A stretch of 64,000 nt of DNA from an uncultured Candidatus Binatia bacterium (GTDB lineage: Bacteria > Desulfobacterota > Binatia > UBA9968 > JAJDTQ01): positions 672,001 through 736,000 of the forward strand of contig OZ251459.1 of NCBI GenBank assembly GCA_965242525.1, read 5' to 3'. Shown here piece after piece: positions 36,785-53,066 of this stretch. Both the position numbers and the translations under genes were made by a program. The number at the start of each line of letters is the position of its first letter. Position 1 is the stretch's first letter. The notes under the pieces were generated by a model, which had not been told where the DNA came from, did not search any database, and saw only the letters and a list, made by a program, of their open reading frames with translations.

Positions 36785-37957
36785 ATGGCGGTTTCAGCTT
36801 TCGAGTACAGCAATCCTCGCGTGGAGCGCATCGTCTTCGGTCGCGGGACGGTAGGCCGGTTGGCGGACGAGGTCCGGCGGCTGGGCGCGAGCCGGGTGTT
36901 CGTGGTGACCTCGCCTTCCATCGCCCGGACGTACCTGCTGGACGCGGTGCGTTCGGCTCTGGGCGGCCTCTGCGTCGGGGTCTTCGACACGGTGAAGCCC
37001 CATTCGCCCACGGACTCGGTGGTGGCCGCGGCAGGGCAGGCGTCCGCGGCGTCCGCGGACGCTTTCGTCAGCGTGGGCGGCGGCAGCTCCATCGACACCG
37101 CCAAGGGCATGGCCGCGTACCTGGCCGAAGGCCGTCCGCTGAAGAGCCTGGCCACCCACTTCATACCGCCTGACCGCAAGGAAGTCCCGGACATGCCGGC
37201 GCCCAAGCTGCCCCACGTGGCCATCCCGACCACCTTCTCGGGGGGCGAGTACAGCTATTCCGCAGGCTTGGCCGAAGCGGGCCACAAGCTCATCCTCGCC
37301 GACCCCAAGCTGTCGCCCCGGGTGGTGCTGCTGGACCCGGAAGCCGCGCAGACCGCCCCGCCCAGGCTGCTGGCCGCGTCCGGCATGAACGCCCTGGCCC
37401 ACTGTGTGGAGGCCATCTACTCGACCCAGACCCAGGTGCTGAGCCAAGCCTACTGCCTGGCCGCGGTGGGACCCATCGCCGCCTACCTGCCGCGTCTGGT
37501 GGCGGACATGGACGACCTGGAGGCCATCGGGGAGATGCAGGTGGCCGCGTGCCTCTCGAGCATGGGGGTCTATAGCGCCTGGACCGGCATCCACCACGGC
37601 ATCGTGCACGTGGTGGGCGGGCGGTTCACCGTCCCCCACGCCCACATCCATGCGCTGATGCTGCCCTACGCCATGCGCTGGAACCTGGACGGCACCACCG
37701 AGGCCATGGCCCGCATCGCCCGGGCCATGGGGGTAAGCGAACCGGACGACGGGAAGGCCGCGGCCCGGGCCCCGGAAGTGGTGTACGAAATGAACGTCGA
37801 GATGGGGCTGTCGTTGCGGCTCCGGGACCTGGACATCCCGCGGGACGCGCTGCCGTCCCTGGCCGAAGCGGCCCTGGACGACATCAGCACCCACAACAAC
37901 CCCAAGAAGATCCACTCGGCCTCGCAGGTGCTGGAGTGCCTGGAGATGGCTTGGTGA
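36785..37957 (+). CDS. Iron-containing alcohol dehydrogenase (maleylacetate reductase-like)
   Basis: VGGGSSIDTAK, IPTT, NALAHCVE, HHGIVH. Confidence 0.9.
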   Translation: MAVSAFEYSNPRVERIVFGRGTVGRLADEVRRLGASRVFVVTSPSIARTYLLDAVRSALGGLCVGVFDTVKPHSPTDSVVAAAGQASAASADAFVSVGGGSSIDTAKGMAAYLAEGRPLKSLATHFIPPDRKEVPDMPAPKLPHVAIPTTFSGGEYSYSAGLAEAGHKLILADPKLSPRVVLLDPEAAQTAPPRLLAASGMNALAHCVEAIYSTQTQVLSQAYCLAAVGPIAAYLPRLVADMDDLEAIGEMQVAACLSSMGVYSAWTGIHHGIVHVVGGRFTVPHAHIHALMLPYAMRWNLDGTTEAMARIARAMGVSEPDDGKAAARAPEVVYEMNVEMGLSLRLRDLDIPRDALPSLAEAALDDISTHNNPKKIHSASQVLECLEMAW

Positions 37958-38028
37958 CCGTTGCGGCGACCTTGCCGTGAAAGTCTGGAGAGCCCCTTGC
38001 CCCGGTTGTCCAGATTTCCTGGATTAAC

Positions 38029-38613
38029 TCCAAGTCTTTGACTTCCTTAAGGTTTCTCCTACATCGGGGGTTCCCAAAAGTCAAGGGGAAACCGGCAGAA
38101 AATCCGGGAAAATCGGGGTCCTTCCGGGGTCCATCCGGGCGCCGTCGAGGGCGTCCATCCGGGGACCTCGCGGGTGCCGTCTCCGGGATCCGTCCGGGGT
38201 CAGCCCGTGGGGACGCCTTGACCCCGGCAAGGTGGTTTGGCAAGGGCAACCAGCAAACGTCCATCCTGGGCACCGTGGGGAAGCGTGGGCGGCGTCTTCG
38301 GGGGTCCGTCTCCGGGGTCCCTGCCGGTAGCCAGAGAGACGGCGATCCACGTGGGGGCCGGGGTCTCTGGCAGGGTCCGGGGTCAGGCTTCGCGGGCAAG
38401 GTCCGGGGCGGCGTCGAGGGCGTCCGTCATGGGTCAGCCCGTGGGGACCTCGCGGGGGCCGTCTTCGAGGCGCCGTGGGAAGCCGTCCCTGGAAGCCGTG
38501 GGAAGCCCGTAGCGACGCGGGAGAGACTGGCCAGTAGGATAGGAAGGGTTGGGGGTCGAGACGCCGCCCACGGCTTTCCTGGGCATCCGGGGCGGCGTCT
38601 CCAGTTGGGGTCA
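38029..38613. repeat. Conserved GC-rich structured flank, copy A of cargo scaffold
   Basis: Homologous to 49120-49421; begins TCCAAGTCTTTGACTTCCTTAAGGTTTC; internal repeats and AGACGCCGCCC/GGGCGGCGTCT hairpin. Confidence 0.85.
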
Positions 38614-38639
38614 GGCTGGCAATCACGTTGTCCTTGCCG

Positions 38640-39161
38640 TCAAAGCCCGAGTTCGCCTTCTTTGGCCTTTCTGCATTCGTGATGATTTTTGAACCAGTAG
38701 GTTATCACCATCTCGAAGTTTTCAATATCTGTACCTGATTTCGACCTCGAAATACTAAACAAAATCTCGTCGATATTGTCCGGGTTCGTATCGGAGTCGG
38801 ATATGAACCATCGCATAGACAACCGCGCTTCGGATGCTGTTTCGGAGGTTTCTTCCTTGTCATGCTCTCCATACTTGGAGGCTAAAAACATCGCTGTTAT
38901 TGCTATATTGCCTTTAGCCTCTTCTATGCTAGATTCTGACCAGATAGCCGCAACTTCACAGGCCCCACCGTCCCGCGTACCTCCGATTAAGAGTCTCCCA
39001 AGGTTAAGACTACTTTTATACTCTCGCGTTTCCTGTCCATACCCTCCAGCACTCCATCCGTCATCCGGCTTGATGGGGTCTCCCATGCTGACCCCCAAGA
39101 GACCCGCCGCGGCCGTGTTCCCGATGGCCAGCATCAACGCCAAGGCCAGCAACGCTTTCAT
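38640..39161 (-). CDS. Secreted hypothetical protein, paralog of the ankyrin protein C-terminal domain
   Basis: Signal peptide MKALLALALML; motifs SMGD, GTRDGGAC, KYG, YWFKNHHEC; low GC. Confidence 0.8.
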   Translation of the reverse strand: MKALLALALMLAIGNTAAAGLLGVSMGDPIKPDDGWSAGGYGQETREYKSSLNLGRLLIGGTRDGGACEVAAIWSESSIEEAKGNIAITAMFLASKYGEHDKEETSETASEARLSMRWFISDSDTNPDNIDEILFSISRSKSGTDIENFEMVITYWFKNHHECRKAKEGELGL

Positions 39162-39190
39162 TTCAAACCTCCCGTCCCTGCCGTCAAAGC

Positions 39191-40957
39191 CTAGAGGTCT
39201 CCATCTTCGGGTTTCTTAGCTTTCTTACATTCGTCATGGTTTTCAAACCAATACGATAAACCAAGCAGGTGGTTATTGGGAAGAATATCTGTTCCTACTT
39301 TTGTGACCCAAAGGGCAAACTCCATGAGCTTGCTTGGGTTCGACTTCGGGAACCATCGCGCTTCCGGGTATTCCGAAGACGACTGCCGACCGAACAACCC
39401 CGATTCAGGTTTTTCCTTGTCAGGCTTTCCGTACTTGTCAGTTAACAAGGTCAGCACCCTGTCATATTCGCTTAAAGCGCGTTCTTTGGTATGAAACCAT
39501 CCGTTAGCACGAAAGGCACAGACCCCACCTTTCCGCGTCCCTTGAACTGTGTATTTTTCAAAGGGGAGACTACCTCTATAGGTGCGCGTTTCTTCTCCCC
39601 ACTTTTCGGATGCTGGTATAGACCTGATGCGATCTCCCATGCAGACCCGGAAGGGACAGGCCGCCCTCCTGAGCCTCTCGGCTTCCTTGGCCTTCTCTGC
39701 GGCTGCCTTGACCCTTTCTACGGCTTCCTTATCTCCGACACTCTCTGCGGCTTTCCTTACGGCCGCAGCATATCCACTGCTCGCCGCAAGGTCAAAAGCC
39801 GTCTTTCCGTCCGTGTTCTTGGCGTTGACGTTGACCCCGGTTCTCAATAAAACCTCTATGGCCGCAGCATGTCCTTGCCACGCCGCATAGTGCAAAACCG
39901 TCCATCCGTGCTTGTCTTCGGCGTTGATATTGGCTCCAGCCTTCAACAGGGCATCAATAGCCGTTACCTGTCCATCAGCCGCCGCATAGTGCAGGGCCGT
40001 CCTTCCCTCCTCGGCCTCGGCGTTGATATTGGCTTCAGCCTTCAACAGGGCATCAATGGCCGTTACCTGTCCTTTGCTCGCTGCCCAATGCAGGGCCGTC
40101 TCTCCCTCCTCGGCCTTGGCGTTGATATTGGCTCCAGCCTTCAACAGGGCATCAATGGCCGTTACCTGTCCGTTGCTCGCTGCCCGAGACAAAGCCGTCC
40201 ATCCGTGCTTGTCCTCGGCGTTGATATTGGCCCCGGCCTTCAACAGGGCATCAATAGCCGTTACCTGTCCTTTGGGCGCTGCAAAATGCAGAGCCGTCAA
40301 TCCGTTCGTGTCCTTGGCGTGAACGTTAGCCCTGGCCTTCAACAGGGTATCAATGACCGCAACCTGTCCGTTGGCCGCCGCATAGTGCAAAGCCGTCAAT
40401 CCGTTCTTGTTCTTGGCGCTGATATTGGCCCCAGCCTCCAACATGGCATCAATGGCCGCAACCTGTCCGTTGGCCGCCGCATGGTGCAAAGCTGTCAATC
40501 CGTTCTTGTCCTCGGCGTGGACGTTAGCCCCAGCCTTCAACATGGCATCAATGGCCGTTACCTGTCCTTTGCTCGCTGCCCGAGACAAAGCTGTCCATCC
40601 GTGCTTGTCCTCGGCGTTGATATTGGCCCCGGCCTTCAACAGGGCATCAATGGCCATTACCTGTCCTTTGCGCGCCGCATGGTGCAAAGCCGTTCTTCCG
40701 TTCTTGTCCTCGGCGTGGACGTTAGCTCCGGCCTCCAACAGGGCATCAATGGCCGCAACCTGTCCTTCCCACGCCGCATCGTGCAAAGCCGTAAATCCCT
40801 TCTTGTTCTTGGCGTTGACGTTGGCCCCTGCCTTCAACATCGTCTGGATTGAAGCCACATCGCCCGCCGCTGCCGCATCATGTAACTTGTCAGCATGAAC
40901 GCTCTTCCCGATGGCCAGCAACGTCAGCATCAACGCCAAGGCCAGCAACGCTTTCAT
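39191..40957 (-). CDS. Secreted ankyrin-repeat protein with C-terminal domain of unknown function
   Basis: Signal peptide; ten full 33-aa GxTALHxAAxxG repeats plus caps. Confidence 0.92.
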   Translation of the reverse strand: MKALLALALMLTLLAIGKSVHADKLHDAAAAGDVASIQTMLKAGANVNAKNKKGFTALHDAAWEGQVAAIDALLEAGANVHAEDKNGRTALHHAARKGQVMAIDALLKAGANINAEDKHGWTALSRAASKGQVTAIDAMLKAGANVHAEDKNGLTALHHAAANGQVAAIDAMLEAGANISAKNKNGLTALHYAAANGQVAVIDTLLKARANVHAKDTNGLTALHFAAPKGQVTAIDALLKAGANINAEDKHGWTALSRAASNGQVTAIDALLKAGANINAKAEEGETALHWAASKGQVTAIDALLKAEANINAEAEEGRTALHYAAADGQVTAIDALLKAGANINAEDKHGWTVLHYAAWQGHAAAIEVLLRTGVNVNAKNTDGKTAFDLAASSGYAAAVRKAAESVGDKEAVERVKAAAEKAKEAERLRRAACPFRVCMGDRIRSIPASEKWGEETRTYRGSLPFEKYTVQGTRKGGVCAFRANGWFHTKERALSEYDRVLTLLTDKYGKPDKEKPESGLFGRQSSSEYPEARWFPKSNPSKLMEFALWVTKVGTDILPNNHLLGLSYWFENHDECKKAKKPEDGDL

Positions 40958-41088
40958 TCCGCCCTCCTCTGGTTAGTCAGCCTACAAGGTGGGGAGCGGC
41001 GTCGTTCCGGTAAGGGACTTTGACAATGGCGGCGTGAACCCGCTCCCCGGACCCGTCCATACACAATCCAGCCCGCGGCGTCAACCCA

Positions 41089-41253
41089 TTAGGCGTCATC
41101 GTCCTCTTCGCCGTGGTTAAGCCAGTAGTTGAGAGCATGACGAACCACCGCCGAGTTTGTGACCTGCACGGACTGATGGCGTTCCGAGTAGGGTTCCACC
41201 GTCACATCAAGCAGTTCTTTCTTGATGCTGACCAACTTGTAATCAGGATGCAT
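41089..41253 (-). CDS. Small ribbon-helix-helix-like protein (54 aa)
   Basis: MHPDYKLVSIKKELLD...TNSAVVRHALNYWL strand-helix-helix pattern; RBS AAAGGGGA; second copy at 49964-50128. Confidence 0.7.
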   Translation of the reverse strand: MHPDYKLVSIKKELLDVTVEPYSERHQSVQVTNSAVVRHALNYWLNHGEEDDDA

Positions 41254-41294
41254 AATCGTATCCCCTTTCAAATGGGGCTCTTCAGGAATTCGAG

Positions 41295-41628
41295 TGGGCA
41301 AGGTAGGAAGGAAAGAGGAGGACAGGGGTCATGCCGTCATTGCTCCGCAGACGCCTACCCCGTCATTCCTGCGAAACCATGTCCTCGTGGAAGCGGGGAC
41401 GGGAATCTCGTTGTACAAACTTCCATGCCCGCTTCTACTTCTTGACCACCTTTTTTCTCTGGATAGCGCTTTTCATGTAGTCAGGGACCTCGTATTCAAC
41501 CAATTGGTCCACAGTGATTGCAAGGCGTCATGGGGTTTGGGTCGGAAGGATGGAAACATGGGGAGTTTGCATAAGAATGGATGGATTCCCGCTTTCGCGG
41601 GAATGACGGTTAGGCTTTCGCGGGAATG
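41295..41628. repeat. dRS3-like composite repeat
   Basis: Matches 5661-5740; TGGATTCCCGCTTTCGCGGGAATGAC at 41582-41607. Confidence 0.75.
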
Positions 41629-41707
41629 TGGGCAGGATTTCACGGCTGTAGCGTTCCGTCCCCTCATGGCGCGGCCGGGTGGGGCGCCCTCCTGGATTCC
41701 ACCCGGG

Positions 41708-41878
41708 TCACCTCGCCGCCAGCCGTCCCGGGTTGCGCTTCATGGCGGTCTCCACGTCTTCCCGTGAGACGCCCTCGGCCATGAGTCCCGCGGCCAGCCT
41801 GCCCAGTCCTTCCGCGGGGCTCATCCGGTCCACCTGTCCCAGGTCCGTGGACAGGACCACGCGGTCGGTGCCTGCCTG
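41708..41878 (-). pseudogene. Duplicated 3' end of the DUF6282-like gene
   Basis: Near-identical to 43966-44136; encodes DRVVLSTDLGQ...MKRNPGRLAAR. Confidence 0.85.
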
Positions 41879-42100
41879 TTTTTCTGATGGAGAGCTTCGA
41901 GAAGGGAGTTTTACCGGCAGGTTCGCGCACTCGATTTGCAATTGAGCAAAGTACCGGCTTGGGCCGCTCGGGGCGGGGGCGATGTTGCCCAAGCGCTGAC
42001 CCCGTTACCTTGTTCCGACTCAAGGCGCCTCGATTTGGGAAGCGTGTGCGGCCGTCCTTTCGGCTTTGACCTCGCCTTGGCATGGGACTATGCTGTCCCC

Positions 42101-43672
42101 ATGAGCGTTCCCGGTGATGGCGCCGCCAAGCGCAAGCTGCCCATCGGCGTCCAGACTTTCCGCAAGATCCGGGAGGGCGGCTGCTACTACGTGGACAAGA
42201 CCCCCTGGGTCCGGCGGCTGGTGGACGAAGGCGAGCAGTACTTCCTCTCCCGACCCCGGCGCTTCGGCAAGAGCCTCCTGCTGGACACCATCAAGGAACT
42301 CTTCGAGGGCAGCGAGGAACTCTTCCGGGGACTCGCCATCCACGACCACTGGGACTGGGACGCGCGCTTCCCCGTGGTGCGGTTGAGCTTCGGCAGCGGC
42401 AACTACAAGGACCCGGACTGGCTGGAGGAAGACGTGACGGACCAGTTCGACGACCTGGAGAAGAGCGCCGGCATGGACGCACGGGCCGGCAGCGGTCCGG
42501 CCCGCCTCCGGCGTCTCGTCCGGTCGCTGCACCAAAGCACGGGGCGCCGTGTGGTGGTGCTGGTGGACGAGTACGACAAGCCCATACTCGACGCCCTGGG
42601 GACCCCGGAGGTGGCCAAGGCCAACCGGGACTACCTGCGCGGGCTGTACTCCGTCATCAAGGACTGTGACCCGCACATCAAGTTCACCTTGCTCACCGGG
42701 GTCAGCAAGTTCTCCAAGGTGAGCCTCTTCTCCGGGTTGAACAACCTGAAAGACATCACCCTGGACCCGCGCTATTCCGCGGTCTGCGGCTACACGGACC
42801 GGGACCTGGACGCCGTGTTCGCGCCCGAACTGCCCGGCCTGGACCGGGACGAGATACGCCGCTGGTACAACGGCTACTCCTGGCGGGGCGACGAGAAGGT
42901 TTACAACCCCTTCGACGTCCTGCTGCTGTTCGACACCCGCGAGTTCCAAGCCCACTGGTTCGAGACCGGCTCCCCCAGCTTCCTCGTCAATGCCCTGATG
43001 GAGCGCCGCGTCTCCTCCCTGGACCTGGACCGCATGGTCGGCGACGAAGAGATGCTGTCGGCCTTCGACGTGGACGAGATGGCCGTCGAGGCGTTGCTGT
43101 TCCAGACCGGCTACCTCACCATCGCCGGGGAGGATGCACAGGACGGGTCCATCGGTTACCGCCTGGCCTACCCCAACCACGAGGTCCGCCAGAGCCTGAA
43201 CCGGCACCTGCTCCTGGCCCTGCTGCCTGACGCCTCGCGGCAGAAGGCCCGGAGGAGTTCCCTTCGCAAGCTGCTGGCCGCCAACGACTTCGCCGGCCTG
43301 GAAGCGCTGTTCCGGTCCATCTTCGCCGGCATCCCCTACGAGTGGCACGTCAGGAACCCCATCCGGGACTACGAGGGCTACTACGCCAGCGTGGTCTATT
43401 CCTGCTTCGCGGCCCAGGGCCTGGACCTGATCGCCGAGGAGAGTTCGAGCGCGGGGCGTGCGGACATGACCGTGCGCTTCGATGGCAATATCTACGTGTT
43501 CGAGTTCAAGACCGTGGAGAAGGAATCCACCGGGGACGCCATACGGCAACTCAGGGAGAAGGGCTACGCGGACAAGTACCGCAGCCTGGGCCAGCCCGTC
43601 CGTCTCATCGGCGTGGAGTTCAGCAAGGCAGACCGAAACGTCACCGCTTTCGAGGTGGAAACGCCTTCCTGA
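42101..43672 (+). CDS. AAA-ATPase-like protein with C-terminal PD-(D/E)XK nuclease
   Basis: LPIGVQTF, YYVDKT, SRPRRFGKS, VDEYDKP, YNPF, GRAD...FEFK. Confidence 0.92.
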   Translation: MSVPGDGAAKRKLPIGVQTFRKIREGGCYYVDKTPWVRRLVDEGEQYFLSRPRRFGKSLLLDTIKELFEGSEELFRGLAIHDHWDWDARFPVVRLSFGSGNYKDPDWLEEDVTDQFDDLEKSAGMDARAGSGPARLRRLVRSLHQSTGRRVVVLVDEYDKPILDALGTPEVAKANRDYLRGLYSVIKDCDPHIKFTLLTGVSKFSKVSLFSGLNNLKDITLDPRYSAVCGYTDRDLDAVFAPELPGLDRDEIRRWYNGYSWRGDEKVYNPFDVLLLFDTREFQAHWFETGSPSFLVNALMERRVSSLDLDRMVGDEEMLSAFDVDEMAVEALLFQTGYLTIAGEDAQDGSIGYRLAYPNHEVRQSLNRHLLLALLPDASRQKARRSSLRKLLAANDFAGLEALFRSIFAGIPYEWHVRNPIRDYEGYYASVVYSCFAAQGLDLIAEESSSAGRADMTVRFDGNIYVFEFKTVEKESTGDAIRQLREKGYADKYRSLGQPVRLIGVEFSKADRNVTAFEVETPS

Positions 43673-43737
43673 TTCCCCGTCCCCGGTTCCTTGACACTGG
43701 GCGCCCCGTCTCTGGCGCCCGTGAAAGCCCCGCCTCC

Positions 43738-43852
43738 GTCATTCCCGCGAAAGCGGGAATCCAGACCCTGCGAGCAAACCCCATGGTACCCTGTATGAAA
43801 GTGGATTCCCGCTTTCGCGGGAATGACGAGTGTGAGCTTTCGCGGGAATGAC
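43738..43852. repeat. Inverted pair of dRS3-like palindromes
   Basis: 43738-43763 and 43802-43827; spacer similar to that at 5782-5820. Confidence 0.85.
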
Positions 43853-43965
43853 AGACCTTTGATTTCTGGCGTCTTCCGGCTTTTGTGCGGCAGGATTCCA
43901 CGGGTGTAGCCTCCCGTCCCCTCAAGGCGCGGCCGGGTGGGACGTACTCCGGGATTCCATCCGGG

Positions 43966-44904
43966 TCACCTCGCCGTCAGCCGTCCCGGGTTGCGCTTCA
44001 TGGCGGTCTCCACGTCTTCCCGTGAGACGCCTTCGGCCATGAGCCCCGCGGCCAGCCTGGCCAGTCCTTCCGCGGGGCTCATCCGGTCCACCTGTCCCAG
44101 GTCCGTGGACAGGACCACGCGGTCGGCGCCCACCTGCCGGAAGACCGCGGCGGTGTCCGCGAACGATACCGCGCCCATGTCCACCAGGACGTAGCTGAGT
44201 TCGACGTACGCTCCGGCCCCGGCCAGCTCCCTTAGGTCGCCGACGTCGAGGGCCGGCGGGTCGTAGCAGGGGTGGGTGACGACCACCTTCTCGACACCGA
44301 GGGCGCCGGCCCGCTCCATCACGTGGAACACCTCGTCCCGTCCCACGTGTCCGGTGGCCAGCGTCAGCCCTTCGCCGGCCGCGATGCGCATCACTTCGTC
44401 CAGGAGGGGCCGCCATCCGGGGGCGAGCACGTCGATGGGCTCCACCTGGTGAAGGGGCTGGGCCATGGCGGAGACGGCGCCGCCGCACCACTCGGGCGGG
44501 ATGTCGTACTGCTCCCCTTCGCCGTGGCGCGCGGTGAGGTGGGCCGCGGCGTGGACCGTGGGCAGCCACACCACCTTGAGGTAGGGCTCGTTGCCTTCCG
44601 ACGGTCCCAAGGCGCCGCGCACCGCCGCGGGGTTGACGCCGCCCACGTAGTGGTTGAGCGTCACCGAGCCGTGGAGGCGGAATCCGGTGACCCGGTGGGC
44701 CATCTGGGCCCAGCTCCCGGTGGCCGCCATGTGCGACTTGACCACGACTCCGGCCAACCCCGACTCGCATGCGTGCAGGGCCAGGGACACGGCGTCGTAA
44801 CGCCGGGGGATGCCCTCGGGTCCGCAGTGGACGTGGAGGTCCACGGCTCCGCCCACGTCGAAGTCCGCGCCGGTGGCCGCGCCGCGCCGCGGGTCGTGGC
44901 TCAT
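43966..44904 (-). CDS. DUF6282-like metal-dependent TIM-barrel hydrolase
   Basis: DLHVHCGP, VVKSH, LATGH, VVTHP, STDLGQ. Confidence 0.8.
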   Translation of the reverse strand: MSHDPRRGAATGADFDVGGAVDLHVHCGPEGIPRRYDAVSLALHACESGLAGVVVKSHMAATGSWAQMAHRVTGFRLHGSVTLNHYVGGVNPAAVRGALGPSEGNEPYLKVVWLPTVHAAAHLTARHGEGEQYDIPPEWCGGAVSAMAQPLHQVEPIDVLAPGWRPLLDEVMRIAAGEGLTLATGHVGRDEVFHVMERAGALGVEKVVVTHPCYDPPALDVGDLRELAGAGAYVELSYVLVDMGAVSFADTAAVFRQVGADRVVLSTDLGQVDRMSPAEGLARLAAGLMAEGVSREDVETAMKRNPGRLTAR

Positions 44905-46139
44905 GCCGCGCCGCAGACGTCCATGGCGGTATGGGCCAGCACCTTGGCGCATTCCACCATCTCGCTGATGAAGACGTAGCCGCCGTCCGGGCCGGACTCC
45001 AGGAAGCCGCCGCCGGGTCCGTAGTGCAGGCACGGGATGCCGTGCTTCCACAACCAGCAACTGTCGCCCGCGGAGTAGGACATGGGCAGGCAGGCGCCGA
45101 TGAGGTTGGGGGGCGAGCCCGTGACCCGCCGGTGGTTCCGCGCCACCGCCTGGACGATGGGCGTGTCCCGGGGCACGTCCAGGGGGTCCATCACCAGCCG
45201 CCGACACCCCTCGAAGAACGCGGGCGGCGGGGTCTCGACGGCGTAGTCGAAACGTGGGTCCGTCTCCTTGAGGGGGTCGAGGGCGCGCTCCACGTCGGCG
45301 ATGACCGAGGCCGCGGTCTGTCCGGGCACGAAGTGCACGTCCACGATGATCGTGCACAGGTCGGGCACGTAGGGCGGCTCGGTGAGCACGTAGCCGTCGC
45401 CCCGGCCGCCGATGATGCTGCCCACGTTCAGGCGGGGCAGGGCAGGCAGGTCGGCCCTCGGGGTATGGGAGAACTCGACGCTCCGCAGGGCTTCGATGAC
45501 CCGGGTCATCTGCTCTACCGCGTTGACCGTTTCCTCGACCCTGCTGACGTGCCCGGTGACGCCGTAGGTGTGGACCGCGAAATGGACGATGCCGCCGTGC
45601 ACGGTCACCAGGTTCCCCAGGCCGAAGGGTTCGGGCAGCACCGCCATGTCAGTCCGAAAGCCGCTCTCCATGAGGTGGCGCGTGCCTTCTCCCCCCTGGG
45701 TCTCTCCCACCACGCAGGCCAGCACCAGGTCTCCGCGCAACCGGACTCCCGCCTGGCGGACGGCTTCGGCCGCGGCGATCATGGAGGCCACGCCGCCCTT
45801 CATGTTCTGGACCCCGTGGCCGTAGAGTCGGTCGCCCTCCACCACCGGAGTCCAGGGGTCCCGCTTGCCGCCGCGGGTAAGGGAGTTGATGTCGATGTGT
45901 CCGTTGAACATGAGGCTCGGGCCGCCTCCCGTACCCGGCAGGGTGGCGATGGCCTGGAGGCGCCCGGGCTCCACCTCCTGCATGGTCACCCGGTACCCCC
46001 GGTCCGAGAGGTAGTCCCGCAGGAACAGGGCCGCGGGGGTCTCGTTCGGACAGAAGCTCGGGATCCTGACGAGCTCTCCGGCAAGGTCCACCAGCGCCGC
46101 GGGGTCAACGTCCATGTGGGGGATGGTCACGGGGGTCAT
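44901..46139 (-). CDS. M20 (ArgE/DapE-like) deacylase
   Basis: FNGHID, LYGHGVQNMKGG, VGETQGG. Confidence 0.88.
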   Translation of the reverse strand: MTPVTIPHMDVDPAALVDLAGELVRIPSFCPNETPAALFLRDYLSDRGYRVTMQEVEPGRLQAIATLPGTGGGPSLMFNGHIDINSLTRGGKRDPWTPVVEGDRLYGHGVQNMKGGVASMIAAAEAVRQAGVRLRGDLVLACVVGETQGGEGTRHLMESGFRTDMAVLPEPFGLGNLVTVHGGIVHFAVHTYGVTGHVSRVEETVNAVEQMTRVIEALRSVEFSHTPRADLPALPRLNVGSIIGGRGDGYVLTEPPYVPDLCTIIVDVHFVPGQTAASVIADVERALDPLKETDPRFDYAVETPPPAFFEGCRRLVMDPLDVPRDTPIVQAVARNHRRVTGSPPNLIGACLPMSYSAGDSCWLWKHGIPCLHYGPGGGFLESGPDGGYVFISEMVECAKVLAHTAMDVCGAA

Positions 46140-46170
46140 CCGGTGGGAAGGGGTCCTGCCGCCGGCGGGG

Positions 46171-47463
46171 TCACGAGGCCGCGTCGGCCAGCCGCAGCAC
46201 CATGCCGGCCATGAGCATGGCGCCGTGGGCCAACGCCTTCTCGTCCAGGTCGAAGGTGGCGGTGTGGTGTCCCGATGGGGCGCCCCCGCCCAGGAGGAAG
46301 TAGAGGGACTTGCCGCCTCGTTCCTGGACCCGGCGCATGAAGTAGGTGGCGTCCTCGCCGCCTCCCAGGGGGCGTGCGTCGTGGACGCGAAAGTCCACGG
46401 GCAGCGCCCGGGCCACGGCCGCCAGGTGGTCCTTGAGCTCCCGGTCCGACTTCCCGCCGATGGTGCGGCCGGTGACCTCGGTGTCGGCTTCGACCCCCTG
46501 GAGCGCGGCCGCGCCTTCGATGCAGCGCTGCGCGCCTGCCTCCATGAGATCGCAGATTTCGTCCGTGCCGCCGCGCACCTCGTACTTGATATGGGCCCGG
46601 GACGCCACCACGTTGGTTCCCGTGCCCGCGTTCAGCACGCCGACGTTGACGAACGTGGCGCCCTGGCCGTGCCGGGGCAGGGCGTGCAGGGCAAGGGTGG
46701 CCTGGCAGGCCGCCAGCAGCGCGTTGCGGCCGCGCTCGGGGGCGCCGCCCGCGTGGGAGGCCGCGCCGCGGAAGCGCGTCTCCATCTTGACGGACGAGAG
46801 GAAATGGGTGGCCTCCAGGGCCACTTCCCCCAGCGGCAGCCCGGGCCCGCCCATGTGGAGGCAGGCGAAGTAGTCCGCGTCGTCCACCACCCCGGCCTCC
46901 ACCATGGGGTGGGCGCCGCGGCCTCCTTCCTCCGCGGGCTGGAACAAGAGCTTCAGCCGGCCCCGCCAGTCCGGGCTCTCGGCCAGCAGCGCCGCGGCGC
47001 CAAGGCCGATGGCCACGTGGGCGTCGTGCCCGCAGGCGTGCATCACCGCGGGCTTCCCGGAAGCGAACCCGCCGGCCGCCGGACGGTGCCCGGCCTCGGA
47101 CGACTCGGCCACCTCGGTGGCGTCCATGTCGAAGCGCAGCGCCACGGTAGGGCCGGAGCCGCGCTCCAGGATGCCCACGGCCCCGGGCGTCTCCACCTCC
47201 CGGCCCAACGCGCCCGCCTGGGCGCGGCTCTCCCGCACCGCCTGCTCATCCGGCCACCCGCGCACCGCGTCCGCACGAACGCAGTCCGCTCCCGTCTCCA
47301 CCCGGTACCCGAGCTCCCGCAGCCGCCGGACCACCATGCCAGTGGTACGAAACTCGGTCCACCCCGCCTCCGGATGCCGGTGCAGGCTGCGCCGCACCTC
47401 GATCATCCCGGGGAGCTTCCCCTCGCACCGCTCCGCCAGTCCCTTCAGGTACTCGTGCGCCAT
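46171..47463 (-). CDS. M20D amidohydrolase (AbgA-like)
   Basis: LHRHPE, RFDMDA, MHACGHDAH, FQPAEEG, GGED, HHT. Confidence 0.9.
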   Translation of the reverse strand: MAHEYLKGLAERCEGKLPGMIEVRRSLHRHPEAGWTEFRTTGMVVRRLRELGYRVETGADCVRADAVRGWPDEQAVRESRAQAGALGREVETPGAVGILERGSGPTVALRFDMDATEVAESSEAGHRPAAGGFASGKPAVMHACGHDAHVAIGLGAAALLAESPDWRGRLKLLFQPAEEGGRGAHPMVEAGVVDDADYFACLHMGGPGLPLGEVALEATHFLSSVKMETRFRGAASHAGGAPERGRNALLAACQATLALHALPRHGQGATFVNVGVLNAGTGTNVVASRAHIKYEVRGGTDEICDLMEAGAQRCIEGAAALQGVEADTEVTGRTIGGKSDRELKDHLAAVARALPVDFRVHDARPLGGGEDATYFMRRVQERGGKSLYFLLGGGAPSGHHTATFDLDEKALAHGAMLMAGMVLRLADAAS

Positions 47464-47524
47464 GACGCCTTCATAACCTTGATGCGGACCGGAGGCAACG
47501 ACGGAACCCTGCTTTGACCCATTG

Positions 47525-49105
47525 TCACATGCCCCACACCGTGACCGGCGCTCCGCCTTCCGTTTCTTCGCGGCGGTACACCCGCTCGTCCCATGACCTG
47601 TCCCGGGTGCGGTCGAAGATCACCAGGTGTCCTTCGGTCGCGGCGCAACGGTCCATGTAGGCGCGTGTTTGCGTGAGACCCTGCCGGAGGGTCTCGTCGA
47701 GGCCCCGGTGCAGCACCTTGCACTCGATGACGATTTTCTGCGTCCGGTCGGCGTCTCCCGCCACCGGCCGGACCATCAGCAGGTCCGTCCGCATGCGCCC
47801 CAGTCCGTACTCGCGCTCGATGCGCCCGCCGCCGTTGACGACGCGCTGCAGGAACGCCTGCAACAACAACTGCGGTCCGGCCTCCCGGTACTGGAACCGC
47901 TCCATCCAGTGCTCCGAGTGTTCGCGGAAGAACGTCTGGAACGCGGCCAGCAGCCCGTTCGTCCGCAGCCCGCCGTCGTCGTCCACGTACCATGCGGGCT
48001 CGTGATGGATGTTCATGGCCTGGGTGGTGTAGGTGAGGTCCCGGGGGATCACTTCCCGGTAGATGGGGTTGGCGATGGCTACGGGATCGTCTCGCGCCAC
48101 CAGCCCCAGGTCGCGCGCGTACTGCAGGTCGTCGGGCGGAATGGAGTCGGTGGAGGGGATGCCGCTCAGGATGGGTTCCACCACCCGGCGCACGCGTTCT
48201 TCCCGGAGCTTGTCCGCGAGCTGGTCCAGGTGCGTGTCGCGGCGCAGGATCAACCGCTCGCGGGCCCGTTGCACCGCCTCCACGTCGATGGGGTCGGAGG
48301 CTTCGGGGGCATGGTCCACGATCTCCGCGCCGAGGGCGTTCACCAGCCACGGCTGGCCCCGGGTCAGCTCCCAGATGAGGGCCACGGCGTCGTCGCGCCA
48401 CACACGGCCCGTCTCCGCGGCGTGTTGCGCCAGCAGCGCCCGGGTCTGGGCTTCGGAGAAGTCCCCGAGGCGCAACGAAGCGGCCTTGACGTTGAAGGCG
48501 CTGCCGCCGGTCACCAGCGCGCCTTCGCCGAGCGAGTGGATCCGGTAGTCCCGCACGTCGCGCACGCCGCAAAGGATCACGCTCTGGGGAAAGCGTTGCG
48601 GGCGCTGGTCGTACCCGGCCCGGAGTTGCCGCAGGACCGTCAGGAGGGTATCGCCCAGCAGCGCGTCGATCTCGTCCACCAGGAGCACCAGAGGGATCCG
48701 GTCCTCCTGCGCCCAGCGGCTCAGAACCTCCTCGAAGGCGCCGTAAGGTCCGGCTCGGTCCAGGGCCTCCGGCCAGATGCGGGCCACGAAGTCGTCGTCC
48801 ATCGTAGCGCACGCCCGGAGCGCCATGTGGTTGAGGATCGCCCGCATGGCCGCGCCCACGTCTTCCCGCGCCGCCTGGGCGCTCTCCACGTTGACGTGCA
48901 CGCAACGGTAGGCGCCGTTGCGGTTCAACCGCTCCATCAACGCCAGCAGCGCGGAGGTCTTGCCGGTCTGCCGCGGCGCGTGCAGCACGAAATACCGCCG
49001 CTGGCCGATCAGGCGCAGCACGTGGTCGGCGTCGAGGCGCTCCAGCGGTGGAATGCAGTAGTGGTCCCGCGCATCCACGGGACCGGTGGTGTTGAAGAGA
49101 CGCAC
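47525..49105 (-). CDS. AAA-family ATPase with C-terminal nuclease-like domain
   Basis: FNTTGP, APRQTGKTS, LLVDEID, TRGQPWLVN, RTDLL..IECK; GTG 49105 or TTG 49114 start. Confidence 0.85.
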   Translation of the reverse strand: MRLFNTTGPVDARDHYCIPPLERLDADHVLRLIGQRRYFVLHAPRQTGKTSALLALMERLNRNGAYRCVHVNVESAQAAREDVGAAMRAILNHMALRACATMDDDFVARIWPEALDRAGPYGAFEEVLSRWAQEDRIPLVLLVDEIDALLGDTLLTVLRQLRAGYDQRPQRFPQSVILCGVRDVRDYRIHSLGEGALVTGGSAFNVKAASLRLGDFSEAQTRALLAQHAAETGRVWRDDAVALIWELTRGQPWLVNALGAEIVDHAPEASDPIDVEAVQRARERLILRRDTHLDQLADKLREERVRRVVEPILSGIPSTDSIPPDDLQYARDLGLVARDDPVAIANPIYREVIPRDLTYTTQAMNIHHEPAWYVDDDGGLRTNGLLAAFQTFFREHSEHWMERFQYREAGPQLLLQAFLQRVVNGGGRIEREYGLGRMRTDLLMVRPVAGDADRTQKIVIECKVLHRGLDETLRQGLTQTRAYMDRCAATEGHLVIFDRTRDRSWDERVYRREETEGGAPVTVWGM

Positions 49106-49119
49106 TTTCCCCAAGTCAA

Positions 49120-49421
49120 TCCAAGTCTTTGATTTCCTTAAGGTTTCTTCTACATCGGGCTTTCCCGGAAGTCAAGGGGAAACTGGCGGGAAAATCGGGT
49201 CCCTGGGAAGGTTCCGGGGACCTCGCATGCGCCGTCTCCGGGGTCAGCCCGTGGGGTCCGGGTGCCGTCTTCGAGGCGCCGTCAGGGAAGCCGTCCCTGG
49301 AAGCGGTGGGAAGCCCGTGGGGACGCGGGAAGCCGGTCAAGGTGAGATGGGAAGGGATGGAGAGAAGACGCCGCCCACGGCGTTCCTGGGCGTCCGTGGG
49401 CGGCGTCTTCGGTTGGGGTCA
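49120..49421. repeat. Conserved GC-rich structured flank, copy B of cargo scaffold
   Basis: Homologous to 38029-38613; perfect 17-bp IR at 49364-49380 / 49394-49410. Confidence 0.85.
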
Positions 49422-49724
49422 AAAGCGGCCCTCAGGGTCATGACGCCAATACTCGGGATAGAATATTCTCATATATTCCCAGAAGTCGGTACCGCCAGCG
49501 ACCGCCTGCAAATCGCCCTCGTTCAGCCTGCTGGTGGGTGGCAGTACCAGATGCGCAACATCGGCGCTCTCTTCGTGGACTTCGACGGAGATGGACGCCG
49601 GAATAGTGACGCCGAACTCCTGCCCGATGGCTCCCTTCGGGTCACTAAGCAACCGGGCTCGGAAGTCTGCGTCCTCTATCGCCTTGCCCACAATTTTCAT
49701 CCGCATTTCATTTTGTGTTTCCAT
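49419..49724 (-). CDS. NHLP (nitrile hydratase-like leader peptide) RiPP precursor
   Basis: KAIEDADFRARLLSDPK, VHEES, HLVLP, DLQAVAGG cleavage motif; 23-aa core. Confidence 0.9.
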   Translation of the reverse strand: METQNEMRMKIVGKAIEDADFRARLLSDPKGAIGQEFGVTIPASISVEVHEESADVAHLVLPPTSRLNEGDLQAVAGGTDFWEYMRIFYPEYWRHDPEGRF

Positions 49725-49881
49725 TGGTTCCCTCCTTCCCGTTAGTCAGGCTCTCCGAAGCCCTACTGCCGTTCATGGTGGCGGCGTGCAAGAGAGAAGG
49801 TAACGAGGTTGATGTCCTCCCCGGTAGTGGAGACTGCACGCCCCAAGCCCTCGCAGCCCCCTACCACAGCAAGGGAAATCC

Positions 49882-49910
49882 CGTCTATACGACAACCCCT
49901 CCCTTGTCAA
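49882..49910 (-). promoter_or_regulatory. Putative sigma70 promoter upstream of NHLP gene
   Basis: Minus strand TTGACA-N15-TATAGA or TTGACA-N17-TAGACG. Confidence 0.4.
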
Positions 49911-49963
49911 GACCCGCCCCCGCGCCAGGTAGAGCGGGCTTCGGAGGGCGGCGCCGTGGACCG

Positions 49964-50128
49964 TCAAGCGTCATCGTCCTCTGCGCCGTGGTCAAGCCAC
50001 TAGTTGATGGCCTGACGAACCACCGCCGAGTTTGTGACCTGCACGGACTGATGGCGTTCCGAGTAGGCTTCCACCGCCACATCAAGCAGTTCTTTCTTGA
50101 TGCTGACCAACTTGTAATCAGGATGCAT
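49964..50128 (-). pseudogene. Second copy of RHH-like gene with TAC->TAG nonsense at codon 43
   Basis: Same length and frame as 41089-41253; TAG at 50000-50002; WLDHGAEDDDA-stop retained downstream. Confidence 0.75.
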
Positions 50129-50357
50129 AGTCGTATCCCCTTTTTCAAATGGAATACTGGAAGCTAAGCATACAATCCATCAAAGTCAAGGTGCCCCTGA
50201 AAGTGCGATACGAACTAATTCCTTCAAGTATCAATTGGCGAGTTGGCGCGGGGTTGCTATTTTGACGAACATGTGATACATTTGAAATATGAGCGATGAT
50301 ACAAAACTTGAAGTAGGCTCTCCCGAGTGGTTGGCAGTAGCTCGCCGCGGTGCAATT

Positions 50358-50468
50358 GGACAGAGAGCATGAGCGCGTCCTTCGACTTCGCTTCGCTCAG
50401 GACGAACGGGGGTCGAGGGTCAGGGCGAGGGAATCCATCCCCCATCTCTCGTTTATCCAGACGTTCCC
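50358..50468. repeat. REP-MITE family copy
   Basis: Inverted REP core plus GGGAATCCATCC and CAGACGTTCCC end. Confidence 0.7.
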
Positions 50469-50472
50469 CAGG

Positions 50473-51447
50473 CTATTCGTCCCGGGCCAGGGCCACCACG
50501 CGCTTGCGCTGTTCCTGGGCGCCCAGGGGCATGAGCAGCGGCAGGTCCAGGCCGCCCCGGACGAACTCGTCCAGGCGCCGGCGGCAGTCCTTGGGGGTCC
50601 CGGAAAGGGAGTGGGCGTGGACCACCTCGTCGCTGATGAGGCCCTTTGCTTCGTCCCAGTCCCTTCGGCCCACCGCGTCCGCCAAGCGCTCCCGGTCCAC
50701 CGCGCCGCCGCCGAGCCGGATGTTCTCCTCGTGGTGCGGGTTGCGGAAGATGTAGGCCAGGAAGGTCCGGGCCGCATCCATGGCTTCCCGCGGGTCGTCC
50801 GCCACCGAGGCCGCGATGAAGCCCGCCGCCTTCCGCCCGCTCGGCGCGCCGGCGCGGGATTCGCCCTTGCGGAACTCCCGGACGCAGCGTTCGATGTAGG
50901 CGGGCGTGCAGCCCGCGGACAGGAGCACGCCGTCGCCCATCTCGCCGGCCAGGCGCAGCATCCGGGGGCGCACCGCGGTCATGTAGATGGGGATGGGGCT
51001 CCCCGGTGTGAGCCCCATGCGGGCTCCCCGGAAGGTGAAGACCTCGCCGTGGAACTCCACGGTCTCCCCCGCCAGCAGCCGGCGCAGCACCGTCATGTAC
51101 TCGCGCATGGTATCGATCATCCGGTCGGCGTCGATGCCGATCTCCCGGAGGGCGGTGGGATTGGCTGTGCCCGCGGTGGCCGCCACCCTGCCGGGCGCGA
51201 ACTCGTCCATGGTGGCCAGCGCCATGGCGGTGACCATGGGGTGCCGCGTGTAGGGGCTCAGGGGAGCGGGGTTCACCGTGATGCGCCGCGTGGCCCCGAG
51301 GAGGGCGGTGGCCGAAGCGATGGAGTCCCGGAAGCAGATGTGGTCGGACATCCAGATGGAATCCATGCCGGTCTCGTCCGCCATCCGCGCCAGCTCGATC
51401 ATCTCCCGGATCGAATAGAAACCGTCGAAGCACAGTCCGGCGTTCAT
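50473..51447 (-). CDS. LLM class flavin-dependent oxidoreductase (Mer-like)
   Basis: SIWMSDH, PYTRHP, LRLAGEMGDGV. Confidence 0.88.
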   Translation of the reverse strand: MNAGLCFDGFYSIREMIELARMADETGMDSIWMSDHICFRDSIASATALLGATRRITVNPAPLSPYTRHPMVTAMALATMDEFAPGRVAATAGTANPTALREIGIDADRMIDTMREYMTVLRRLLAGETVEFHGEVFTFRGARMGLTPGSPIPIYMTAVRPRMLRLAGEMGDGVLLSAGCTPAYIERCVREFRKGESRAGAPSGRKAAGFIAASVADDPREAMDAARTFLAYIFRNPHHEENIRLGGGAVDRERLADAVGRRDWDEAKGLISDEVVHAHSLSGTPKDCRRRLDEFVRGGLDLPLLMPLGAQEQRKRVVALARDE

Positions 51448-52960: not shown

Positions 52961-53066
52961 GGTGTTCAGGGTCTCCCTATAGCGCATCGCTACGGATGGG
53001 AGAAGACATTGCGCGGGCTTGGCCTCGACGGCGGCGTCGCACCACGCATCCCGGCCCCCGAACATC

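Follow-up and report, generated by a model that had tools for sequence, protein, structure and literature searches.

Exported-product cassettes in a sponge-associated Binatia bacterium and their probable descent from a small tyrosine-recombinase integrative element

The DNA analysed here, hereafter the window, is a stretch of 64,000 nucleotides from an uncultured Candidatus Binatia bacterium (assembly GCA_965242525.1, contig OZ251459.1; G000:C1:672001-736000, G000 being the 4.23-Mb genome to which it belongs). It carries two units, A and B, both read on the minus strand, in which unrelated genes for exported products are set in a common scaffold. We found that this scaffold belongs to a dispersed repeat family whose members hold diverse cargo, occupy sites that are empty in a sister species (genome G023, 93-95% identical in the genes around both units) and, in that sister species, are associated with a tyrosine-recombinase gene. 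These data make it rather likely that both units are recombinase-less offshoots of a small, clade-restricted tyrosine-recombinase integrative element with a built-in expression slot. A preliminary description of the window had proposed either a non-autonomous gene-capture platform or a degenerate integrative element, and had held that the units matched no recognised class of element. The second proposal gained support, as leader, cargo and flank follow a decayed tyrosine-recombinase gene and a left end in G023. The claim of a wholly new class went too far, the nearest kind being integrase-bearing integrative elements and their defective derivatives, and an active capture platform in this genome was not borne out, as neither a cognate integrase nor a left end was found here.

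As we read it, a cassette would comprise a sigma-70-like promoter and a leader of ~150 nt with a 13-bp long-range inverted repeat and a Shine-Dalgarno sequence, followed by a low-GC exported cargo, a perfect hairpin of ~17 bp, a GC-rich arm of 250-550 bp and an outward-facing, promoter-like terminal module. The parts of the two units and of the DNA adjoining them are as follows, in window coordinates (ORF, open reading frame; RiPP, ribosomally synthesised and post-translationally modified peptide).

37973..41273, minus strand: inserted DNA of unit A; the single-copy portion stops at 41273, with high-copy repeats thereafter.
38016..38613, minus strand: flank A, a tandem pair of partial GC-rich flank copies by nhmmer profile; copy 1, 38424-38613, corresponds to flank profile positions 1-185, and copy 2, 38016-38301, to positions 9-308.
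About 38029-38110: terminal promoter-like module within flank A.
38557..38602: near-perfect palindromic hairpin 3′ of the unit A cargo, GGAGACGCCGCCC..GGGCGGCGTCTC.
38640..39161, minus strand: unit A cargo 2, a 173-aa secreted protein.
39191..40957, minus strand: unit A cargo 1, a 588-aa protein comprising a signal peptide, ten ankyrin repeats and, at its C-terminus, a 173-like domain.
40958..41088, minus strand: leader A, with a promoter-like start (TTGACG..TATGGA) and then a diverged leader holding its own 9-bp inverted repeat, GGGGAGCGG/CCGCTCCCC, then CTGACTAAC and a Shine-Dalgarno sequence.
41089..41253, minus strand: small ORF A, intact, 54 codons and a stop.
41274..41630: high-copy intergenic repeats, not unit-specific, with ~10 to more than 200 genome copies along the stretch.
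41631..41878: second copy (248 bp, 93%) of the DUF6282 gene's 3′ end, which also occurs at 43889-44136.
49106..49420, minus strand: flank B, with a hairpin (49364-49410), a GC-rich middle and a terminal module, TTGACT..TAGAAG..CCTTAAGG..TCAAAGACTTGGA.
49419..49724, minus strand: unit B cargo, a 101-aa NHLP-type RiPP precursor.
49725..49911, minus strand: leader B, with a TTGACA..TATAGA start, a 13-bp long-range inverted repeat, GGCGTGCAG../..CTTGCACGCC, a GGCT..AGCC hairpin, CTGACTAAC and a Shine-Dalgarno sequence.
49964..50128, minus strand: small ORF B, interrupted in frame by a TAG at 50000-50002 (codon 43).
50129..50348, minus strand: single-copy low-GC stretch 5′ of ORF B, within the DNA that replaces the 206-bp spacer of G023.

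The likeness between the two units is strong. Flank B matches flank A at 83% over 186-187 bp (E 2e-45 to 3e-45) and, in a second match, at 75% over 171 bp (E 7e-22 to 1e-21), and the two flank ends are 82% identical over 94 nt. The small-ORF block that had been reported for both units (41086-41268 and 49961-50143) is 93% identical without gaps, or 94.05% over 185 bp by blastn (E 8e-77), and begins ~15 nt 5′ of the ATG, at CCATTTGAAA. Given these E-values, we judge the sharing not to be due to chance. Most other parts of the preliminary description were found in place: the leader motifs CACGCCGCCA and CTGACTAAC (window 40972 and 49741) with an AGGAGGG Shine-Dalgarno sequence, the shared flank starting at TGACCCCAAC and ending at TCAAAGACTTGGA, the TGA of the NHLP gene within the conserved flank, inside the TGACCCCAAC box, the lower GC content of the cargo relative to its surroundings, and the lack of any integrase or transposase in either unit. 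The two leader motifs and the Shine-Dalgarno sequence are remnants of a longer homologous leader; leader A can be aligned with the leader family along its full length, minus ~45 nt, and its 9-bp inverted repeat encloses the same inner motif as the other leaders. It had been overlooked that flank A is two tandem partial copies.

Across the whole genome the scaffold recurs around unrelated exported cargo, as had been proposed. Iterated nhmmer searches placed the leader at seven loci, with a degenerate eighth copy in unit A, and gave 14 flank matches at 11 loci; the flank motifs are confined to cassette loci and are not genome-wide repeats. The conserved part opens with a TTGACA box, with TATAGA, TATAGT or TAGTGT 15-18 nt downstream, and the leader contains an almost invariant inverted repeat, GGCGGCGTGCAG..(about 45 nt)..CTGCACGCCGCC, in which 98% of the cells are paired and six of the 13 pairs are invariant. 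A GGCT..AGCC hairpin and CTGACTAAC lie 5′ of the Shine-Dalgarno sequence in the NHLP, 173-like and one other cassette. The order 3′ of the cargo is a YTGACCCC box, a perfect 17-bp hairpin, a GC-rich stretch repeating the motifs CCCACGGGCT and GGAGACGGCGC, and the terminal module, TTGACT-17 nt-TAGAAG..CCTTAAGG..TCAAAGACTTGGAGTTA. The flank folds better than shuffled sequence (z = -3.78), mainly owing to the hairpin, and a search of window 37500-51000 against all Rfam families at E up to 1 gave no match. Leader B is 79.7% identical over 172 nt to the leader of the 1.559-Mb cassette, both cargoes being NHLP paralogues, and 76% identical over 143 nt to the lipoprotein leader at 2.066 Mb.

A promoter role is inferred for leader and terminal module alike, from their likeness to native promoter regions at two empty sites. 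Among the ten G000 cassettes having a flank or hairpin, the downstream gene is co-oriented with the cassette in eight (one-sided binomial p about 0.055), and several cassettes in both genomes end 0-75 nt from a start codon, which together suggest that the terminal module may supply a promoter to the downstream gene. Candidate features that we set aside were a small upstream ORF in the leader and coding on the opposite strand of the flank, in both of which the frame is shifted by indels between copies, and CsrA-type GGA loops, which are not conserved among copies. Beside the cassette at 3.508 Mb lies a ~160-bp repeat (L010 1662-1824; G000:C1:3509101-3509263) that has the look of a miniature mobile element and is present in many copies in G023 and G006.

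The range of the family is narrow. By blastn, the flank matched one of 28 genus genomes, G000 itself, and the leader two of 41 relatives. A covariance model of the leader (R1) gave five matches in G000 and eight in G023, and marginal single matches (E about 6e-4) in two of 26 other genus genomes. A pattern scan of the genome-contig collection for the terminal module returned no stretches, and among 26 stretches of metagenome contigs that fitted the leader pattern none was a leader by R1, the best scoring 17 bits (E 0.006) and 10 bits, short and partial. On these searches, the cassette family is confined to two uncultivated sponge-associated bacteria, this species and its sister. No description of the family was found in the literature searched, although absence there cannot prove that none exists.

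Comparison with the sister species and with the rest of the genus shows both units to be inserted DNA. A 17.7-kb synteny query across 28 genus genomes gave the ancestral gene order at the locus as ADH / DUF6282-M20-M20 / luciferase-like, with ADH ~30-240 bp from the DUF6282 gene wherever both matches were listed on one contig. At the site of unit A, the interval from ADH to the DUF6282 gene is 33 bp in G023 versus 5953 bp in the window (37973-43925), where unit A is accompanied by high-copy repeats and by an AAA-ATPase_like/PDDEXK_9 gene lying between the copies of the 248-bp duplication. The site of unit B measures 206 bp in G023 versus 1365 bp in the window (49106-50470), and flank B runs right up to the GTG start codon of the AAA_35 ATPase gene (47525-49105). 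Contigs of ~98%-identical strains cease matching at 37968 and 37975, the boundary of unit A. Metagenome contigs of runs X6 and X8 give almost no cover of window 38636-40771, which alone is no proof of absence, and sponge-metagenome contigs from another study contain unit B with no differences.

Three further cassettes are likewise insertions relative to related genomes. The cassette at 1.559 Mb is a precise 906-bp insertion at GGGGTATTATAGT|CGGG, after TATAGT, where G023 reads GGGGTATTATAGTCGGGAAAAGG; the insert terminates ..GGAGTTAATCTATTAGT, leaving TAGT on both sides (4 bp). Its left end consists of the last ~60 nt of a 173-like gene and a hairpin, and we therefore take the insert to be a piece of a tandem array. 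The cassette at 2.065 Mb occupies 1592 bp, versus 45 bp in G023 and 121 bp in G002, and its flank abuts the ATG of the next gene. At 0.400 Mb, a cassette of 1.88 kb lies between 309-bp direct repeats (95% identical) of a sequence that is single-copy in G023 and G002, an arrangement that would be expected from single-crossover integration of a circular fragment. This locus (G000:C1:399876-402372; L015 2877-5373) is a lipoprotein cassette with an ISL3 transposase fragment, and its 309-bp repeats duplicate the promoter and first ~235 nt of a FrsA-like esterase gene. The sharp shared boundaries that had been envisaged were found at the 3′ end only, which is conserved as ..TCAAnGnnTTGGAGTTA in this genome and ..CAACGGGTTAAGG in G023; the 5′ ends in this genome are ragged, as in the truncated upstream gene at 1.559 Mb, and a conserved 5′ end was found in G023 only.

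In G023 the scaffold stands behind a recombinase gene. Its eight leader copies lie at sites other than those in G000, and several follow immediately on an ORF of ~100-150 aa with a match to the SAM-like N-terminal domain of phage integrases (Phage_int_SAM_4, E 8e-4, below Pfam's cut-off). All nine copies of this gene, int, are short or stopped. One reads as a 291-aa tyrosine recombinase with a single TGA, its signature residues having been read by eye from the translation, and the 184-aa C-terminal part of this copy matches the phrog_1 integrase at E 2e-14. The order of the G023 elements is a left end of ~75 nt, int, leader, cargo, GC-rich flank and a terminal TTGACA..TAGTCT..CAACGGGTTAAGG, and four of them are 2.1-2.7-kb insertions relative to empty sites in G000. 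The flank was detected by nhmmer downstream of G023 cassettes, and the copy with the nearly full int has the same left end and flank as the cassette copies. The cargo in G023 includes lipoproteins and two secreted ankyrin proteins.

Of the four G023 junctions read, two carry target duplications, of 13 and 14 bp, one including the nrdR start codon. Two targets share GTTCT, while the duplicated sequences differ (GTTCTGGTTTCAG versus ATGAAATGCCCCTT) and the other junctions are without duplication. The 3′ end of one element abuts a native ATG, and another element sits in a 5′ untranslated region (UTR). Around G023:C1 2833595-2835738 (L079 3582-5738), an element lies in a PIN-domain gene at about codon 9-13, and the remaining frame of the interrupted gene runs on from a GTG within the element's left end. 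Relatives of the C-terminal integrase ORF were sought in the genome contigs, where only G023 itself and one 31-residue match were found. An intact 332-aa integrase in G043, with 2176 relatives, is ~36% identical to the G023 int fragments, too little to identify the cassette recombinase.

We favour the interpretation that the scaffold of units A and B corresponds to the passenger slot and right end of the 2.1-2.7-kb element that is seen with int in G023. A and B would then be either non-autonomous or fossil copies that arrived at their present sites after the species split. In such an element the leader would provide the start of transcription and translation for the cargo, the GC-rich flank may be the arm to which the recombinase binds, and the terminal module may drive the downstream gene or, in the excised circle, the recombinase gene. 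Because the junctions in G000 are mixed, comprising a 4-bp repeat, duplications of 248 and 309 bp and truncated left ends, relocation in this genome would have involved no dedicated enzyme but illegitimate recombination by the host, or homologous recombination of the Campbell type acting on circularised fragments, and A and B themselves were probably relocated by illegitimate or homologous recombination.

Several observations weigh against the derivation from an integrative element. Neither a homologue of the G023 integrase nor the left-end motif was found in G000, and none of its three PF00589 genes is near a cassette; two match Xer-type recombinases strongly, and the third shows 36% identity to a different integrase. 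In every G023 cassette copy int is cut short at about codon 73-147 and may itself be a relic, and the copy with the nearly full int is without a leader, such that leader and cargo could be secondary entrants. Flank homology between G000 and G023 is weak (nhmmer E about 1e-8 to 1e-15, with no blastn match), and junction duplications of 0, 4, 13, 14, 248 and 309 bp fit no single site-specific mechanism. Covariation in the leader helix is thin, with one of 13 pairs changed on both sides, and leader B folds no better than shuffled sequence (z = -0.54). A strict sigma-70 scan of unit B found no promoter, which is why we word the promoter roles given above as inferred.

Three other explanations account for parts of these data. 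The cassettes could form a gene-capture platform that is non-autonomous but still active, with an unrecognised recombinase of this genome moving them in trans and cargo being exchanged at conserved boundary boxes, CTGACTAAC before the start and TGACCCCAAC after the stop. The presence of these boxes on both sides of unrelated cargo, the sharp 3′ boundary at ..TTGGAGTTAATC and cassette insertions at all five sites with readable sister-species synteny would fit such a platform, as would a third tyrosine recombinase at 2375605-2376300 and the two-gene tandem arrays and truncated upstream cassette, which suggest cassette arrays. Against it, a cognate recombinase was not found in this genome, and neither were a conserved 5′ end, terminal inverted repeats or a constant target duplication; the copies are just 75-87% identical, indicating that none is very recent, and no supported circular junction was seen among the metagenome contigs aligned to the window, where candidate joints had short sides or fell within repeats. 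We regard active capture as improbable. We give equally little weight to an explanation without mobility, in which co-regulated genes for exported products keep common 5′ and 3′ UTRs and differ in cargo through duplication, divergence and gene replacement. A regulon would be expected to retain a conserved promoter, leader and hairpin, many of the lipoprotein cargoes resemble one another in their signal peptide and ~100 N-terminal residues as paralogues would, and prokaryotic genomes commonly contain families of similar sequences upstream of unrelated genes (PMC3575422). However, the ankyrin, NHLP and lipoprotein cargoes are not paralogues, another 250-550 bp of conserved non-coding DNA extends past the terminator hairpin, the cassette sites in the two sister species are non-orthologous with empty sites in both directions, and G023 retains recombinase remnants and target duplications.

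Variation of the Mycoplasma vpma/vsp type, in which promoters and surface-protein genes would be exchanged by a tyrosine recombinase acting at a site in the conserved leader, seems very unlikely. It would account for the conserved 5′ UTR and signal peptide ahead of variable lipoproteins and for the tyrosine-recombinase gene directly upstream in G023; the leader carries an invariant 12-13-bp inverted repeat, and the proposed recombination sites of vpma loci are placed in the conserved 5′ UTR (PMC2268961). Yet the cassette genes are scattered, each with its own promoter-like start, inverted copies were seen at no locus, and the recombinase copies have decayed in G023, with none present in G000. 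A broader synthesis of our preferred derivation with ongoing exchange is, in our view, possible though unlikely: these would be minimal elements of sponge symbionts with a plug-in slot (promoter, structured leader, exported cargo and terminator), an outward right-end promoter, copies moved in trans and swapped cargo. Thanks to the outward promoter, host genes would stay active when an element lands at their very start, and the recombinase would be turned on in the excised circle. Recombinase-less copies like A and B would remain mobile, either in trans or through host recombination, and the conserved boxes immediately 5′ of the start codon and 3′ of the stop codon would be the points at which cargo is exchanged. 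Were this true, host-interaction proteins and orphan RiPP precursors would be distributed among symbiont strains by this route.

The scaffold had been thought to include a ribbon-helix-helix (RHH) gene, the small ORF of both units. This was not borne out, as the ORF has two copies in the whole 4.23-Mb genome, in units A and B only, and is absent from all 27 other genus genomes (28 searched, including this one). It is an accessory common to A and B, outside the general scaffold. ORF A is intact, and in ORF B a change of TAC to TAG at codon 43 had been overlooked. Among 5.8 billion proteins, three other relatives were found, of 53-54 aa and 80-85% identity. The RHH fold was not confirmed either: no family model was matched at the thresholds used in Pfam, NCBIfam and PHROGs, comparison with PDB sequences gave chance-level matches only (E 1.1 and above), and the AlphaFold2 monomer, which has two helices but no strand, is of too low quality (mean pLDDT 59.9) to settle the fold. 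A dimer prediction scored 0.29 against a mark of 0.42, without a verdict, and "RHH-like" stays a guess.

The earlier annotations of the ankyrin and NHLP cargo, by contrast, hold. The ankyrin protein of unit A matches PF00023 at E 5.8e-75 in ten stretches, and the precursor of unit B scores 74.2 bits on TIGR03793, versus a curated cut-off of 50.9. The cargo of the scaffold in this genome consists of lipoproteins, the secreted ankyrin protein, a 173-aa secreted family, NHLP precursors and another secreted protein, the types being mutually unrelated, and its GC content at third codon positions is 0.53-0.69 versus 0.85-0.97 in neighbouring genes. The lipoproteins have the signal peptide and ~100 N-terminal residues in common and are different beyond. 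The 173-aa protein is paralogous both to the ankyrin protein's C-terminal domain and to the cassette cargo at 2.989 Mb; it has no family match in Pfam, NCBIfam or PHROGs, and the protein atlas yields only unnamed clusters. By tblastn, the unit B precursor is 59-75% identical to the precursor genes at 1619752-1623023, and on that basis the cassette NHLP precursors look like orphan copies of substrates of the RiPP cluster at about 1.62 Mb. The orphan precursor in the 1.559-Mb cassette (G000:C1:1559554-1559832) ends in Asp-Trp.

Insertion sequences (IS) have removed some leaders. A lipoprotein cargo at G000:C1:2934104-2936340 (L016) is interrupted by an IS630-family transposase gene, and at G000:C1:2640607-2641755 (L014) a lipoprotein N-terminus is joined to an IS5-type (DUF772) transposase fragment. 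Several other features adjoin the two units. The AAA-ATPase_like and PDDEXK_9 gene between the 248-bp direct repeats (41936-43672, plus strand) is not at this site in G023 and belongs to a highly multi-copy family, with a tandem four at G000:C1:600540-607401 and ten at G023:C1:827898-843346. The AAA_35/ORC-like ATPase gene beside unit B (minus strand) lies between the M20 peptidase and luciferase-like genes in G000 and G023 only within the genus, and copies 72-74% identical occur at other places in several genus genomes. Very high-copy intergenic repeats, which include the palindrome TGGATTCCCGCTTTCGCGGGAATGACG, lie at 50349-50470 (up to ~700 blastn matches) and 41574-41630 (~200). Just past unit B is a gene for a 519-aa Fic-domain protein (51506-53065, minus strand).

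Sponge symbionts are rich in secreted eukaryote-like proteins, and the gain and exchange of such genes are little understood. The cassette family offers a concrete vehicle, with its own expression signals, positions that differ between sister species, and a cargo of ankyrin proteins, lipoproteins and RiPP precursors, and would explain why orphan NHLP precursors lie at a distance from the cluster that matures them. Should the terminal promoter and the bias towards gene starts prove real, the cassettes would represent a mobile element that rewires the downstream gene upon insertion, and a source of expression parts for uncultivated high-GC bacteria.

Integron cassettes are the most obvious known system with which to compare these units, being likewise single-gene units with interchangeable cargo, a palindrome after each and tandem two-cassette arrays. 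The units in this family differ in having their own promoter-like leader, in being scattered and not attached to an attI, and in the lack of an IntI-type integrase; the intact G043 relative of the G023 integrase scores 14.3 bits on the integron-integrase model TIGR02249 (cut-off 265). As read from the sequence, the cassettes are without attC, their palindrome being perfect (GAAGACGCCGCCCACGG..CCGTGGGCGGCGTCTTC) with no GTTRRRY/RYYYAAC pair, and identity with integron cassettes was rejected on attC, on IntI and on the promoterless state of integron cassettes. A miniature inverted-repeat transposable element or other non-autonomous DDE transposon was also rejected, given that the start of the leader and the end of the flank do not form an inverted-repeat pair and that the length of the duplication is not fixed.

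Putative mobile promoters have been defined by at least 80% identity over at least 50 nt of the -150..-50 region of non-paralogous genes (Matus-Garcia, Nijveen and van Passel 2012; PMC3575422). Like these, and like promoter-bearing miniature elements such as the Correia elements named in the same work, the cassettes place similar upstream regions before unrelated genes of a single genome and have an outward promoter-like end by host gene starts, and the route by which putative mobile promoters are mobilised is also unknown (PMC3575422). The cassettes differ in including a 3′ flank and travelling with their cargo, and no terminal inverted repeats were found. Of two leader pairs set against the 80% threshold, the one before unrelated cargo reaches 76% over 143 nt, and the other, at 79.7% over 172 nt, precedes NHLP paralogues. 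The Mycoplasma vpma/vsp/vsa loci, served by Xer1-type recombinases, have in common with the cassettes a conserved 5′ UTR and signal peptide, divergent lipoproteins and an adjoining tyrosine-recombinase gene; they are single clustered loci with one promoter and DNA inversions (PMC2268961), whereas the cassettes are dispersed, each with a promoter-like start and no inversions seen.

The closest counterparts are small integrative elements of the tyrosine-recombinase kind. Here, too, there are differences: the cassettes have a standardised promoter-leader-hairpin slot for exported products, no clear common att core was seen, duplications range over 0-14 bp and, in G000, 248-309 bp, and every copy found is recombinase-defective or recombinase-less. 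For the cassettes, a tyrosine-recombinase gene with a catalytic domain was found in G023 only, with none associated with them in the window or in G000. Recombinase-less modules with interchangeable cargo are familiar from Acinetobacter plasmids, where pdif (Xer-dependent) modules are thought to be moved by host enzymes; the cassettes are chromosomal rather than plasmid-borne, and no dif-like 11-6-11 sites were seen at their ends. Defined ends together with an empty site, the mark of an integrative element, were found for A, B, three further cassettes and the four G023 elements, and the 2.1-2.7-kb elements of G023 resemble small tyrosine-recombinase elements in having a left end, a recombinase of ~291 aa, cargo, a conserved right arm and new sites of insertion.

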